From contig CAZVDL010000002.1 in assembly GCA_964626365.1 (NCBI GenBank), forward strand, positions 19,966 to 83,965: a stretch of DNA of 64,000 nucleotides, given 5' to 3'. The translations under genes and the position numbers were made by a program. Below, one piece after another: positions 558 to 53,219 of this stretch. The notes beneath the pieces were generated by a model that searched no databases, was not told the DNA's origin, and saw only the letters and a program-made list of their open reading frames with translations. The first letter of the stretch is position 1; each line of letters begins with the position of its first letter. The DNA comes from an uncultured Nitrososphaerota archaeon. GTDB lineage: Archaea; Thermoproteota; Methanomethylicia; Nezhaarchaeales; B40-G2.

Positions 558-1112
558 ATGTATGTAAAGAGGATAGTTATAGAGAGAATTATGCCTTGTA
601 TCGCTGATCCTACAAAGATAAGGGTTATTGCTAAAGCTGACCGTGACCTTAAAGATGTACTTCCATATCTAGATAGAATTATACCATCAGCTAATTACTC
701 TGAGGCGGCAAACATTCTAACCTTTAAGAGGGGGTTAAGCCTAGTAACTATGTATGGCGATGGCAGGATCACAATGACTCAAATCTCTAATGAAGAAGAA
801 GCGTTTAAGGTGTTGGAGGAGTTAAAGGAGCTTATTAATAGGACATGGGAGAGGAGGGGCAGCATCGACATTTCAAAGCCTAAAGCCAAGGTTAGGTTGG
901 GGCCTATTGAAATTTACGCTTATCTGCCCAAGCTTAATTGCAAAATGTGCGGTGAACAATCATGTATAGCTTTTGCAGCCAAGCTCTTAATGATGGAGAA
1001 GGGATTAGATGAATGCCCCTACCTCAAGGAGGAGAAGTACAGAAGTTTAAGGGAGACCTTGGAGTCGCTACTTGAATCCGCTGGGTATAAAAGATCGATT
1101 ACGTGGTATTGA
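558..1112 (+). CDS. Small Fe-S protein: ~130-aa N-terminal domain of unknown function plus a C-terminal C-x2-C-x4-C-x16-C cluster-binding module, the motif seen in corrinoid-FeS-protein and RnfB N-termini
   Basis: The ORF has GGAGG 7 nt upstream of the ATG and an AT-rich TATA-like element around 523-534. The motif CKMCGEQSCIAFAAKLLMMEKGLDEC matches the spacing of the FeS domain in CFeSP, RnfB and RACo. The same module recurs in ORF 30685..31164. Confidence 0.5.
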   Translation: MYVKRIVIERIMPCIADPTKIRVIAKADRDLKDVLPYLDRIIPSANYSEAANILTFKRGLSLVTMYGDGRITMTQISNEEEAFKVLEELKELINRTWERRGSIDISKPKAKVRLGPIEIYAYLPKLNCKMCGEQSCIAFAAKLLMMEKGLDECPYLKEEKYRSLRETLESLLESAGYKRSITWY

Positions 1113-1201
1113 CTAAGCCTTGAGCTCGTAGCGTTCTCAAAACAAAATTACATGCGCTAGGTCGGAGGTTAAGCTAGCGGGGAGGCTATTTAGGGACGGT
1201 T

Positions 1202-2290
1202 TCAACCTCCCACCTCCTTTAGCTTCTTGGGTAAGTACTTATCGACTATCGCTGAGAGCCCCTGCGCGCTGAAGCTTTCAAGCTCAGCTTTACGCTGGAG
1301 CTTAAGAAAGGTATCTATTTCACGCTGCCAGAAGCTGTCCCTGTACCTTGGATCCTTCTTGAGCTCTCTGAGCCTCTTAAGGTCCCTTTCATTCATAGGT
1401 AAAGTGGGCAGCTTGCGATACTTTAAGAGGTCGGTGGCCCATAGCCCCAGCCATTTGGCGGTCGGTGTCGTCAACCCCTTAATGTGGGCTGCGTTAGCTG
1501 AGCCGTGTATGATGACGTTAGCTATATGCATTCCCCAAGGGTCCGCGTCGGTTAAAATGTAGACGGGTAATCCTAGCTCCTCGTTAAGCCTCCTAAGCAA
1601 TAACCTAGTAAATCTCGGTGCTTGGCCAGCGCTATCTATCAATATAGCCTTAAACCTCTCGTAGACCCTCTCCTCTATGAACCTCCTGAAGATGGCCCCC
1701 TTCTCTATCACTATCACCATCTCCGCGTTGCACTCTATGAACTCAGCGGTGGCTATGGACATACCTATGTTCTTGCCGTCGGGGTCAGAGAGCAGGTTTA
1801 CTCTTTTACCCGCGTGGCTGGGGGGCACAGTGTACTCTATGGTGAGGTCGCCGAAGATGGAGCTACGCTCTTCCGGTGAAATCTTAAAGTCTTCTCGGGG
1901 CACGCCCAGCACGCTTTCAAGGTCAGTGACTATGTCGTCACTCTCCTTCTGACTCTTAAACCTAAACTCGGGGAAGTTTAAGCTCGTGTAGTATAGGTCT
2001 CTTAGACTACACGACTTACCCTCCTTTATAAGCTGGCTAGCAAACCACCCCACCCATAGTAGCTGGGTGAAGGACTTAACATGTCTTATATTGGCGGCGC
2101 TCCGCTCAACGTGTTCAGAGCCCAACACGTACTGCTTAGACCTCTCGTCGTAGATGATGTTGGAGGTGGAGCGGCTAGGCAGGTATACTTTAGGTAGCCT
2201 TCCCCTAGCCATCTGTCTATATACGTTCATTCCAAGCTCAGACAGCTTCTCGAGAACACTCCTCTTAGCAACCTCATACCTAGTGGACAT
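1202..2290 (-). CDS. top6A: DNA topoisomerase VI subunit A (Spo11/Top6A family)
   Basis: A 362-aa ORF lying directly downstream of Top6B in the same orientation, as an operon. Size and sequence are typical of archaeal Top6A. Confidence 0.8.
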   Translation of the reverse strand: MSTRYEVAKRSVLEKLSELGMNVYRQMARGRLPKVYLPSRSTSNIIYDERSKQYVLGSEHVERSAANIRHVKSFTQLLWVGWFASQLIKEGKSCSLRDLYYTSLNFPEFRFKSQKESDDIVTDLESVLGVPREDFKISPEERSSIFGDLTIEYTVPPSHAGKRVNLLSDPDGKNIGMSIATAEFIECNAEMVIVIEKGAIFRRFIEERVYERFKAILIDSAGQAPRFTRLLLRRLNEELGLPVYILTDADPWGMHIANVIIHGSANAAHIKGLTTPTAKWLGLWATDLLKYRKLPTLPMNERDLKRLRELKKDPRYRDSFWQREIDTFLKLQRKAELESFSAQGLSAIVDKYLPKKLKEVGG

Positions 2291-23425: not shown

Positions 23426-24115
23426 CTATTCTCCTAGAAGGATCTCCCTAATTTTCTCGCCCAGCTTTATTTCCTCTCTGGTGATTAAGGAGACCGTGAG
23501 TAATCCGTCTTCTATTGTATAATCTTGAACGACTAAATCCTCAGGTATTAGTATACTCAACACGGTATTGTTGAAGACGTTTAACAATCTATGAGTTAGG
23601 TCTTTAATTACCTCCTCAAGTTCAAGGACGTTTAAGGAAAGGTATACGTCGTAAACTACATCTTCCCAAGTGCTCCTCCAATAAGCTTTAATGACTCCTC
23701 CAAAGATCATTATATCATCGGGGCCCTTAACCTTGTCTCTAAGCTCTTCGGGTAAGATGTCCATGGTCTTATGGTAAAGTTCTTCAACCACTCTCCTTAG
23801 ATGCTCTTTCATCTGCTTCAGAGGTACTAGATTACCAGGGAGTGATGGTACCTCCTTGAAGCCTTCGCGAACTCTATAATCTATTATTACTGCATCACTG
23901 AAAACGTCGTATAACTTTCCGTAAGCTTTATGGAACTTTGAGGGCTCCCTTAAATGGAAGGCTGCAAAGGGCATAGGGTAAGGTTCCTTAATAATCTTTA
24001 ATTGAAGCCCTACGATAGCGCTACCCTTGTCCTTTATAATCTTAATGACCCTATGGCTGATCCTTAGTGCCACGTCTTCCCATTCATCTAAGTAGATACC
24101 TGGTTTACTGCTCAA
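23426..24115 (-). CDS. Hypothetical protein in low-GC islet
   Basis: A 229-aa ORF with no recognisable motif and ~40 % GC against the ~53 % background. Confidence 0.35.
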   Translation of the reverse strand: MSSKPGIYLDEWEDVALRISHRVIKIIKDKGSAIVGLQLKIIKEPYPMPFAAFHLREPSKFHKAYGKLYDVFSDAVIIDYRVREGFKEVPSLPGNLVPLKQMKEHLRRVVEELYHKTMDILPEELRDKVKGPDDIMIFGGVIKAYWRSTWEDVVYDVYLSLNVLELEEVIKDLTHRLLNVFNNTVLSILIPEDLVVQDYTIEDGLLTVSLITREEIKLGEKIREILLGE

Positions 24116-25010
24116 ACCGCTCCCTCCTCATCCTTTCAATTATGTCCCTTAATTTTCGAGCTTTACTTGGGCTTCTAAATCCTATTTTCTCGTAAAACTT
24201 CATTATACTATCGATCGAGTTAATACGTAGCTCATACTCTAAACTTTCACCAAACTCTCCTCTACTCCTTAATGGACCATAAAGCTTAGCCTTTATCCCT
24301 AGCTCCTCTAACATGTCACGCACCATCATGAGCCCTTTTACGTTTACTGATTTAGCATAGATAGTGGCATATGTGTGTCTTCTCTTTTGATATGAACTGA
24401 CGCCTCCATCACCGTCAAAGTAACCTTGGAGCCATGCACACTTTCCCTTTTCGTCAAGGTACTCTATTGGAGGTCTCCAATTACGTCGCCCAATCTCAGC
24501 GCCATACTTTAGTAGATCCTCTAAGATATCACGTCCATAAACCGTGAACTCAGTATAGTGACCTTTTCCTTTATCTCCGCGATATCTAGTACTTATCTTC
24601 ACACCAAATATTTCACGTATAACCCTTATAAACTCCTGATAGGCATCAGAGCCGTTGTGGAGTTGAACTCTATATCTACCCACTTCTTTTCTCGCTGAGC
24701 CGTTTGCGCATAGTAGTCCATGTAGATAAGCTCGGTCTATGCTATATAGCGGCCTATAACCTGAGGCTCTAACCTCGAGTATCATTCCTCTACCCATGTC
24801 TAATAAGGCTCTATTACCGTTGTCAATAACTAGCTCCTTGTACTCTCCAATCTTCCTACTATCTTCATAGAGCACGTAACTCTCTCCTTGCCTCGTTATC
24901 CTATAAGGGCCTACTCTAAAGACTTCCTCCTCAACATGGGATGATATTTCCTGCTCCTCTCCCTGTCTGAAGCGATCCTTGACCTGCCTTATTCTGTCAC
25001 CTGAACCCAA
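24105..25010 (-). CDS. Free-standing LAGLIDADG-type homing endonuclease-like protein (two LAGLIDADG-like motifs)
   Basis: The motifs are YLHGLLCANGSA and AWLQGYFDGDGGV. The spacing of ~95 aa fits a double-motif LAGLIDADG enzyme. GC is low. Confidence 0.55.
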   Translation of the reverse strand: MGSGDRIRQVKDRFRQGEEQEISSHVEEEVFRVGPYRITRQGESYVLYEDSRKIGEYKELVIDNGNRALLDMGRGMILEVRASGYRPLYSIDRAYLHGLLCANGSARKEVGRYRVQLHNGSDAYQEFIRVIREIFGVKISTRYRGDKGKGHYTEFTVYGRDILEDLLKYGAEIGRRNWRPPIEYLDEKGKCAWLQGYFDGDGGVSSYQKRRHTYATIYAKSVNVKGLMMVRDMLEELGIKAKLYGPLRSRGEFGESLEYELRINSIDSIMKFYEKIGFRSPSKARKLRDIIERMRRERFEQ

Positions 25011-26869: not shown

Positions 26870-26968
26870 TGCGGGGGGTGGGATTTGAACCCACGCCGGC
26901 CTTCGCCAACGGATACCCCAAGCCTGTTCTTGAGTCCGCCCCCTTGGACCTGGCTCGGGAACCCCCGC
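26870..26968 (-). tRNA. tRNA-Leu (anticodon CAA) with canonical ~14-nt intron after position 37 and long variable arm
   Basis: The reverse complement gives GCGGGGG...GCGGA-CUCAAG[intron]A-UCCGU, a 14-nt variable arm, GUGGG-UUCAAAU-CCCAC, CCCCCGC and discriminator A. Confidence 0.7.
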
Positions 26969-28384: not shown

Positions 28385-28475
28385 GGCGGCCGTGGTCTAG
28401 CCTGGTCCAGGACACAGAGCGCTGAGCGTGTAGGCCTTCCACGCCTGTTACCCGGGTTCGAATCCCGGCGGCCGC
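28385..28475 (+). tRNA. tRNA-Gly (anticodon UCC) with a 16-nt non-canonical intron inside the 5' strand of the anticodon stem
   Basis: The exons give GCGGCCG UG GUCU AGCCUGGUCCA GGAC A CAG[AGCGCUGAGCGUGUAG]GC CUUCCAC GCCUG UUAC CCGGG UUCGAAU CCCGG CGGCCGC A. The acceptor and T-arm are typical of archaeal tRNA-Gly. Confidence 0.7.
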
Positions 28476-28486
28476 ACTTCCTCCCT

Positions 28487-28762: not shown

Positions 28763-28947
28763 AGCTCTCAGGTACTCAGGTACACTAAGCTATACTTAGC
28801 CCCGCCGCCTTGACACACCGCAACCTACTAGCAGAATACCCAGCTAATACCCACTGCAACACGTTTAGATTAAATTATAATTGAGTACGCGCTAAGCCTT
28901 TTACTTATTTCAAAAGAACCTCAAGGTAAAGCTTAAGACCCCCAGCC

Positions 28948-28972
28948 TCGGCTATAAAAACGCCCCGGCCAA
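28948..28972 (+). promoter_or_regulatory. TATA-like element (GCTATAAAAACG) ~20 bp upstream of tRNA-Glu(UUC)
   Basis: It is an AT-rich box at the expected archaeal promoter distance. Confidence 0.4.
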
Positions 28973-29098
28973 GCCCCGGTAGTATAGCCACGCCCGCGCA
29001 GGGCGCTAGAACGGTCAAGTATACCGGCCTTTCGAGCCGGCGACCCGGGTTCAAAACAGGCGAGGTTAACCTCGCCTGTGAGACTCCCGGCCGGGGCA
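28973..29098 (+). tRNA. tRNA-Glu (anticodon UUC) with two non-canonical introns (22 nt in D-loop, 29 nt in T-loop)
   Basis: The exons are nearly identical to the intronless tRNA-Glu(CUC) at 52463..52537. The D-loop is AGCC[ACGCCCGCGCAGGGCGCUAGAA]CGGUCAA. The anticodon arm is CCGGC-CUUUCGA-GCCGG. The T-loop is UUCAAA[ACAGGCGAGGUUAACCUCGCCUGUGAGAC]U. The acceptor is GCCCCGG/CCGGGGC plus A. TATAAAAA lies ~20 bp upstream. Confidence 0.7.
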
Positions 29099-29279
29099 TC
29101 CTCAATTCAACATTAAGTACGACTGGCATGTCAGGGTACCAACATCTTGGCGTCTTTTAAGTAGCTAGCTATTAAAGTTAATGGAGGAAGTGGAAAATTG
29201 CTAGAAGTTTTTATAAGCTCCTTGGCCTTCTCCACAACCCTTAAATATAATAATACGCGGGTGATAGGCTCGATGAATC

Positions 29280-52462: not shown

Positions 52463-52537
52463 TGCCCCCGCCGGGATTTGAACCCGGGCCGCCGGCTCGA
52501 GAGGCCGGTATACTTAACCGGGCTATACTACGGGGGC
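52463..52537 (-). tRNA. tRNA-Glu (anticodon CUC), no intron
   Basis: The reverse complement gives GCCCCCG UA GUAU AGCCCGGUUAA GUAU A CCGGC CUCUCGA GCCGG CGGC CCGGG UUCAAAU CCCGG CGGGGGC A. Confidence 0.8.
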
Positions 52538-52857: not shown

Positions 52858-52969
52858 GCCGGGGTCGCCTAGCCTGGTCTAGGGCGCCGGACTCATAATC
52901 AGATGAGGCTGAGGCCAGGCGCCTGCATGGGGTATCCGGTCATCGCGGGTTCGAATCCCGCCCCCGGCA
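52858..52969 (+). tRNA. tRNA-Met (anticodon CAU, elongator-type; tRNA-Ile2 not excluded) with ~36-nt canonical intron
   Basis: The sequence reads GCCGGGG UC GCCU AGCCUGGUCUA GGGC G CCGGA CUCAUA[intron]A UCCGG UCAUC GCGGG UUCGAAU CCCGC CCCCGGC A. Confidence 0.75.
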
Positions 52970-53219
52970 CATCTTTACTCTGCTACTCATTACTACTCCT
53001 TGGGAGTGTAGGCCATGCAGGAGGGGGTCTCCTTCACCCATAAACCATAGTACTCGCACCAGTATGTTCCATCGGGCCTAGTCTTTCTAGCTTTAAGGCA
53101 GTTGTGGCACGAGAGCTCGTAGGGCATGGCTCTAAGCACCATATTACCTTCCCTTATAGGGGTTTTAAGCCTTACCTCAAAAACCTTAATAATTCTATTA
53201 AAGGAGTCTAAGTAGATAC

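Follow-up and report, generated by a model that had tools for sequence, protein, structure and literature searches.

A 126 nt stretch at positions 28973-29098 of the 64 kb of archaeal DNA analysed here (the window, which derives from a metagenome assembly) is very probably a functional tRNA-Glu(UUC) gene of an uncultured Thermoproteota archaeon, made up of three exons separated by two short bulge-helix-bulge (BHB) introns. Both inserts behave as introns of the archaeal endonuclease type and both are at non-canonical positions, one in the D-loop (17/17a) and one in the T-loop (59/60). The original prediction, which described two such introns in this gene and implied a Thermoproteales origin, is partly supported; its account of structure and mechanism was correct, and the taxon it implied was not. 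The parts of the gene, and the intronless paralog in the window, are as follows.

28973-29098, + strand: tRNA-Glu(UUC) gene, 126 nt, exons of 17, 44 and 14 nt and two introns
28973-28989, + strand: exon 1, 17 nt, acceptor 5' strand, D-stem 5' strand and D-loop through C17
28990-29011, + strand: intron 1, 22 nt, ACGCCCGCGCAGGGCGCTAGAA, in the D-loop between C17 and C17a, placed by exact string
29012-29055, + strand: exon 2, 44 nt, remaining D-arm, anticodon arm (anticodon TTC at 29031-29033), variable region, T-stem 5' strand and T-loop through A59
29056-29084, + strand: intron 2, 29 nt, ACAGGCGAGGTTAACCTCGCCTGTGAGAC, in the T-loop at 59/60, placed by exact string
29085-29098, + strand: exon 3, 14 nt, T60, T-stem 3' strand, acceptor 3' strand and discriminator A73
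52463-52537, - strand: paralog tRNA-Glu(CUC), intronless, 75 nt, found by ARAGORN and, with 63.4 bits, by the tRNA model of Rfam

Structure of the gene and its spliced product

The full gene reads GCCCCGGTAGTATAGCC [ACGCCCGCGCAGGGCGCTAGAA] CGGTCAAGTATACCGGCCTTTCGAGCCGGCGACCCGGGTTCAAA [ACAGGCGAGGTTAACCTCGCCTGTGAGAC] TCCCGGCCGGGGCA, with the inserts in the outer brackets. Its 3' end reads ...GGGGCA|TCC, and the CCA is not encoded. Deletion of both inserts leaves 75 nt that ARAGORN calls as tRNA-Glu(ttc), with a normal cloverleaf and an intact anticodon loop. This spliced product is identical to the tRNA-Glu(CUC) paralog at 70 of 75 positions. Two of the five differences form a compensatory acceptor-stem pair, and the other three affect the first base of the anticodon and single bases of the D-loop and the variable region. 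The coordinates of the gene, the lengths and positions of the two inserts, and the existence of a near-identical intronless tRNA-Glu(CUC), had all been claimed beforehand and are correct.

Structure of the introns

The register in which each insert was examined is that of the canonical intron at 37/38, where the first two anticodon bases are in the central 4 bp helix (PMC4090602). The first bulge then consists of the final two exon bases and the first intron base, the preceding four exon bases pair with intron bases -6 to -3 to form the central helix (H), and the second bulge consists of the final two intron bases and the first base of the 3' exon. For both introns, the boundaries given by exon homology fall exactly between nucleotides 2 and 3 of the bulges.

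In the T-loop intron, the T-stem serves as the outer helix h (29045-29049 with 29086-29090, 5 bp). H is formed by 29050-29053 (TTCA) and 29079-29082 (TGAG), with four pairs that include one G-U, and it is flanked by the bulges AA|A (29054-29056) and AC|T (29083-29085). The inner helix h' (29057-29065 with 29070-29078) has 9 bp and is closed by a TTAA loop. This is a strict hBHBh' motif. The hairpin, CAGGCGAGG-TTAA-CCTCGCCTG, had been noticed in the original prediction and is exact at 29057-29078. It occurs once in the window and no further copy was found there with up to 3 mismatches, hence the window gives no hint that the intron has transposed within it. When the boundaries were kept as given by exon homology, none of 200 000 shuffles matched the observed BHB quality of the insert, and the T-arm segment folded far better than its shuffles (z = -5.9). 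In an exhaustive scan of 4181 candidate deletions in the gene, 28 satisfied relaxed criteria, and the 29 nt T-loop intron was the only one of these with 4/4 H pairs, a long h' and a 5 bp h.

The D-loop intron is less regular. Its H (28984-28987, ATAG, with 29006-29009, CTAG) has three of four pairs, the bulges are CC|A (28988-28990) and AA|C (29010-29012), and h' (28991-28995 with 29001-29005, CGCCC/GGGCG) has 5 bp. Only one pair is found where an outer helix would be, and the motif is a relaxed HBh'. With the boundaries again fixed by exon homology, the observed BHB quality was matched by 4 of 200 000 shuffles. The D-arm segment alone folded no better than shuffles (z = -0.46), and support for the D-loop intron is for this reason comparative. 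For the whole precursor, the BHB-cloverleaf as designed has a free energy of -61.4 kcal/mol and the minimum free energy (MFE) structure one of -68.2 kcal/mol.

Assignment of both inserts to the BHB class is based on their excision, which gives a canonical cloverleaf, and on the 3 nt bulges around a 4 bp helix, in strict form in the T-loop and in relaxed form in the D-loop. Structure is also more conserved than sequence, in a qualitative sense only as there are just three distinct D-loop and two distinct T-loop intron sequences. The original prediction had been staked on BHB-like folds at the junctions and on a UUC cloverleaf after splicing, and both were found. Self-splicing group I and group II introns were considered and rejected, as the inserts are just 22 and 29 nt whereas the catalytic RNAs are hundreds of nt, and a search of the gene against the Rfam intron families gave no match even at E<=10.

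Orthologous loci and distribution of the introns

A genome collection with one genome per species, in which the window's own genome is not a species representative, was scanned with 0-30 nt inserts allowed at both sites. The scan recovered 73 tRNA-Glu(UUC) loci, 71 with no insert at either site (among them six Vulcanisaeta genomes, Desulfurococcales, Sulfolobales and Caldarchaeum) and two with a D-loop intron. A Ca. Methanomethylicia MAG (L056) has an 18 nt D-loop insert, ATGCGAAGAGCACTAGAA, and Ca. Terraquivivens ruidianensis (L042, Nitrososphaerota) has a 17 nt insert, ATGCGGTTGCACTAGAA, at exactly the same site. Exon 1 of the window gene does not differ from that of the intronless orthologs.

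Further orthologs were reached via homologs of the AF_0155-family protein encoded upstream, which included none between 74 % and 100 % identity. Two of them (L079 and L080) repeat the state of L056. In L083 there is no D-loop insert and a 30 nt insert is found at 59/60; it is unrelated in sequence to the T-loop intron of the window and has the same architecture, with an 8 bp hairpin, GGAA paired with UUCA, and bulges AA|G and AA|U. Two loci of Nezhaarchaeota (L086 and L073) have neither insert. All four states, namely D-loop intron only, T-loop intron only, both and none, are thus represented at the orthologous locus among relatives. The paired isoacceptors had been proposed as a natural experiment on intron gain or loss, and the experiment turns out to be stronger than proposed; the locus provides a compact comparative set for this purpose.

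The D-loop introns of L056/L079 and L042 share the register, H(b) (CTAG) and bulges of the window intron. Their h' is TGC/GCA (3 bp), where the window has CGCCC/GGGCG, which means that the hairpin has changed in sequence on both strands with pairing retained. Apart from the loop, the L042 intron is the same as that of L056 (A-TGC-loop-GCA-CTAGAA). We also note that two Ca. Terraquivivens species, represented by L042 (349-440, - strand) and L017 (1672-1746), have identical exons and that only L042 has the 17 nt intron.

The D-loop intron could also be cut in another register, with removal of 28991-29010 (20 nt) from a perfect 4 bp TAGC/GCTA helix, which would leave a mature tRNA with two added D-loop nucleotides (AGCCAACGGUCAA). 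This register, moved by one nucleotide at each side, is the one in the RNAfold MFE structure (TAGC/GCTA plus GCCC/GGGC with a 3 nt CAC bulge), and the exhaustive scan includes the 28991-29010 candidate, with 4/4 H pairs and a 4 bp h'. However, when applied to the L056/L079 and L042 introns it gives a C-A mismatch and an h' of only 2 bp, whereas the 22 nt register is kept in all three intron versions (window, L056/L079 and L042). Moreover, only the 22 nt excision yields the D-loop AGCCCGGTCAA common to most intronless orthologs recovered, a comparison in which the scan pattern itself fixed most of AGCCCGGTCAA and left free only C/T at one position (T in few). The 20 nt register is therefore considered unlikely, and the 22 nt register is used below.

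Two other sequence collections were scanned. A metagenome scan that demanded a T-loop insert gave only two matches, on contigs with unrelated BHB introns at 59/60 (L077, 15 nt) and 58/59 (L078, 30 nt). In viral contigs, the D-loop intron pattern had five matches, all of which were rejected as chance matches in A+T-rich sequence that is not tRNA.

Annotation and alternative explanations

The unspliced gene gave no tRNA call, either with ARAGORN (with or without the intron option) or with Rfam (gathering threshold and E<=10). Weak Rfam matches to the NiCo riboswitch, mir-636 and Scr1601, all well under the threshold, are due to the intron hairpin. The ARAGORN check suggested with the original prediction was thus successful for the spliced product and failed for the gene as it stands in the DNA. 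What a gene caller finds instead is the following ORF, which was called as a gene in L074 (2626-2850) and L076 (10-234).

28905-29129, - strand: 74 aa ORF across the tRNA gene, spurious

In this way the gene for a required tRNA, the single Glu(UUC) gene observed in the window, was overlooked by ARAGORN and Rfam, and a hypothetical 74 aa protein was substituted for it. The tRNA complements of MAGs from this clade, and completeness estimates based on tRNAs, will be underestimated unless an intron-aware archaeal mode is used.

Failure of the standard tRNA finders to recognize the locus is what would be expected of a decaying pseudogene with two insertions that is out of use, and the count of Glu(UUC) genes covers the 64 kb window, which leaves room for a second, intronless copy elsewhere. 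Nonetheless, a pseudogene is very improbable, as excision of both inserts in their BHB registers gives back precisely the conserved mature sequence. The exons are identical (75/75) to those of the syntenic ortholog in L056, with no substitutions in 75 nt, while the flanking DNA is only ~67 % identical (~33 % diverged). The gene at the syntenic position in relatives is tRNA-Glu(UUC), and the promoter-like box upstream (see below) is conserved. That the inserts are assembly artefacts or chimeric joins has to be considered for any contig from a metagenome, and here the chance of this is negligible, because the identical 126 nt gene is present in two separately assembled contigs, L074 (157 kb) and L076, and MAGs from other studies have related introns at these sites. 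Exon identity, the registers in the orthologs and the independent assemblies together indicate a functional spliced gene rather than a pseudogene or an artefact.

It is equally hard to credit that the region encodes the minus-strand 74 aa protein and that its likeness to a tRNA is secondary. The ORF does start with ATG and was annotated automatically in two assemblies. However, it belongs to no Pfam family and its low-complexity translation is a product of the G+C-rich tRNA sequence. The orthologs differ by indels of 4 and 29 nt, so the frame cannot be conserved, and these indels break it while the tRNA exons are identical. We conclude that the locus is a tRNA-Glu(UUC) gene with two introns, which are predicted to be spliced in vivo.

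Upstream region

Two features were recognized 5' of the mature end.

28928-28938, + strand: promoter-like box AAAGCTTAAGA (archaeal TATA/BRE-like), 35-45 nt 5' of the mature end
28960-28972, + strand: presumed 5' leader ACGCCCCGGCCAA, with pairing partner 29089-29097

The box, as AAAGYTTAAGA or AAGATTTAAGA, is found at an equal distance 5' of the orthologs in L056, L079, L083, L086 and L073, and the DNA around it differs among these loci. AAAGCTTAAGA is thus a putative promoter.

Within the presumed leader, GCCCCGGCC copies the 5' strand of the acceptor stem (GCCCCGG plus CC) and is complementary at 9/9 positions to GGCCGGGGC (29089-29097) at the tRNA 3' end. In the RNAfold MFE structure computed with the leader, it is the leader, and not the true 5' strand, that pairs with the 3' end. 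An 11-mer, ACGCCCCGGCC, is kept 5' of the L056, L079 and L080 orthologs, although the flanking DNA has diverged there. For the other seven tRNAs in the window, similar complementarity between leader and 3' end does not exceed 4 nt. The repeated upstream GCCCCGG was also considered as evidence of a third intron, and a pair of its possible splice registers, out of a larger number, was worked by hand. Neither forms a BHB or BHL, and the repeat is treated here as leader.

The 9 nt that mimic the acceptor strand could serve in a checkpoint on the folding or processing of the doubly interrupted precursor, and the 17-22 nt D-loop intron could be a single homologous element moving between distant archaea, with the invariant D-arm exon sequence GTAGTATAGCC/CGGTCAAGTAT as the site of recombination. 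As one joint reading, these two suggestions are speculative and we regard them as rather unlikely to hold.

Proposed maturation pathway

Transcription would start ~11-13 nt 5' of the mature end, near 28960, as judged from the conserved TATA-like box. In the precursor, U54-A57 of the T-loop would pair with UGAG of the intron, and the T-stem and the 9 bp intron hairpin would complete the strict motif. In the D-arm, (A12)U13-G15 would pair with CUAG of the intron beside the 5 bp intron hairpin, to form a relaxed HBh' with no outer helix. The tRNA splicing endonuclease EndA would then cut past nucleotide 2 of each 3 nt bulge, with predicted sites at 28989|28990 and 29011|29012 in the D-loop and at 29055|29056 and 29084|29085 in the T-loop. 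This EndA is presumably an (alpha-beta)2 enzyme with a specificity loop. Among EndA types, just (alpha-beta)2 and epsilon2 excise introns that are relaxed or non-canonically placed, and (alpha-beta)2 enzymes are widespread across TACK archaea (PMC5829648); the earlier claim that an endonuclease of relaxed specificity is needed agrees with that account. An RtcB-type ligase would join the exons of 17, 44 and 14 nt, RNase P and 3' processing enzymes would trim the ends, and the CCA, which is needed because none is encoded, would be added. The gene adds no new mechanism.

Comparison with known interrupted tRNA genes

One of the closest known cases is the pre-tRNA-Glu(UUC) of Methanopyrus kandleri, in which an HBh' intron occupies the D-loop at 20b/21 and a second intron is canonical. 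In vitro, the relaxed intron was removed by the (alpha-beta)2 EndA of A. pernix, and the AFU EndA and the M. kandleri enzyme were inefficient on it (PMC5829648). The window gene shares with it the isoacceptor, the number of introns and the relaxed HBh' intron in the D-loop. It differs in that the D-loop intron is at 17/17a, on the opposite side of G18G19, and in the site of the second intron, which is T-loop 59/60 and not 37/38. M. kandleri is also a euryarchaeon, whereas the host here is represented by a TACK-lineage MAG.

Introns at 59/60 are known from ARMAN-2, and permuted Thermofilum tRNAs are broken at that same position. The break point in the T-loop, the T-loop bases in the central helix and the T-stem as outer helix are the same in the window gene. 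Here, in contrast, the motif is a strict hBHBh' with a 9 bp inner hairpin and the gene is a normal, non-permuted one.

In Thermoproteales, up to three introns per tRNA gene are found and 59/60 is among the positions listed (PMC4090602; PMC8450103). An example, as reported by Sugahara et al. (cited in PMC4090602), is the tRNA-Pro(UGG) of Pyrobaculum islandicum, with introns at 25/26, 37/38 and 56/57. The window gene resembles these in having several BHB or relaxed introns at non-canonical positions with quick turnover between relatives. However, its host is outside the order, and the reported signature of intron transposition was not found within the window. Caldiarchaeum subterraneum (Aigarchaeota) is described as having an intron-rich tRNA set, with introns in the D-, V- and T-arms (PMC3293823), and L042, which is related to Caldarchaeales, carries apparently the same D-loop intron as the window. 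C. subterraneum belongs to another lineage than the host, and the text consulted (PMC3293823) named no tRNA-Glu(UUC) with the D- plus T-loop combination. Relative to these published cases, 17/17a plus 59/60 is a new combination in a new lineage, and not a new type of system.

Host lineage

The window matches a 157 kb metagenome contig in ENA. The gene order around the locus is tRNA-Gln, tRNA-Leu(CAA), metallo-beta-lactamase-fold protein, AF_0155-family protein, tRNA-Gly(UCC), tRNA-Glu(UUC), desulfoferrodoxin and rubrerythrin. L056 has most of this order in common with the window: its tRNA genes, AF_0155-family protein, desulfoferrodoxin and rubrerythrin can be aligned, at 69-72 % identity for the proteins. 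Part of the order is found, inverted, in a Ca. Nezhaarchaeales MAG (L073). Named homologs of the AF_0155-family protein are that of 'Candidatus Nezhaarchaeota archaeon', with 62 % identity, and that of an unclassified 'Thermoprotei archaeon' MAG, in the same cluster at an identity of at least 90 %. In the NCBI taxonomy, Methanomethylicia (Methanosuratincolia) are within Thermoproteota and outside Thermoproteales. The host is related to Methanomethylicia and Nezhaarchaeota MAGs in Thermoproteota, and synteny, identity, named homologs and lineages all fail to place it in Thermoproteales.

The Thermoproteales origin implied by the original prediction is not supported by this synteny to Ca. Methanomethylicia and Ca. 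Nezhaarchaeales, nor by the six Vulcanisaeta loci, which have no inserts. It had been argued that multiple non-canonical introns are a hallmark of Thermoproteales, but they are also found in Aigarchaeota, Thaumarchaeota, M. kandleri and ARMAN and are consequently not diagnostic of the order. Fast turnover of non-canonical introns, best known in Thermoproteales, extends to Thermoproteota related to Methanomethylicia and Nezhaarchaeota.

Other interrupted tRNA genes

Four of the eight tRNA genes in the window are interrupted, by a total of five introns of which three are non-canonical. A scan of the window for the T-arm motif revealed no hidden tRNAs beyond these eight. Those interrupted, in addition to tRNA-Glu(UUC), are listed below.

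26870-26968, - strand: tRNA-Leu(CAA), 14 nt canonical intron
28387-28477, + strand: tRNA-Gly(UCC), 16 nt BHB intron at 29/30
52858-52970, + strand: tRNA-Met(CAU), 36 nt canonical intron

The tRNA-Gly(UCC) intron has an H of ACAC/GUGU (4/4 pairs) and bulges AG|A and AG|G. ARAGORN reports the gene as 'tRNA-???' or tRNA-Trp, and Rfam gives only a partial match. The orthologs in L081, L086 and L073 are intronless, those in L056 and L079 have a ~22 nt insert in the variable region and that in L083 has an insert adjoining the anticodon loop; introns of this one orthologous tRNA therefore occupy three different sites among related MAGs.

A free-standing ORF of 301 aa (24105-25010, - strand) with a LAGLIDADG_3 domain (E = 6.5e-18) is part of an overlapping block of three ORFs that adjoins the tRNA cluster of the window. 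In L081, a sequence at ~1100-1230 (+ strand) resembles the 3' part of tRNA-Glu(UUC) (...GGCCGGCTTTCGAGCGACCCAGGTTCAAATCCCGGCCGAAGCA). Neither the 3' strand of an anticodon stem nor a 5' half is obvious in its vicinity, and it may represent a tRNA gene that is split or heavily disrupted. A faint LAGLIDADG_3 match is located alongside the tRNA cluster of L081.
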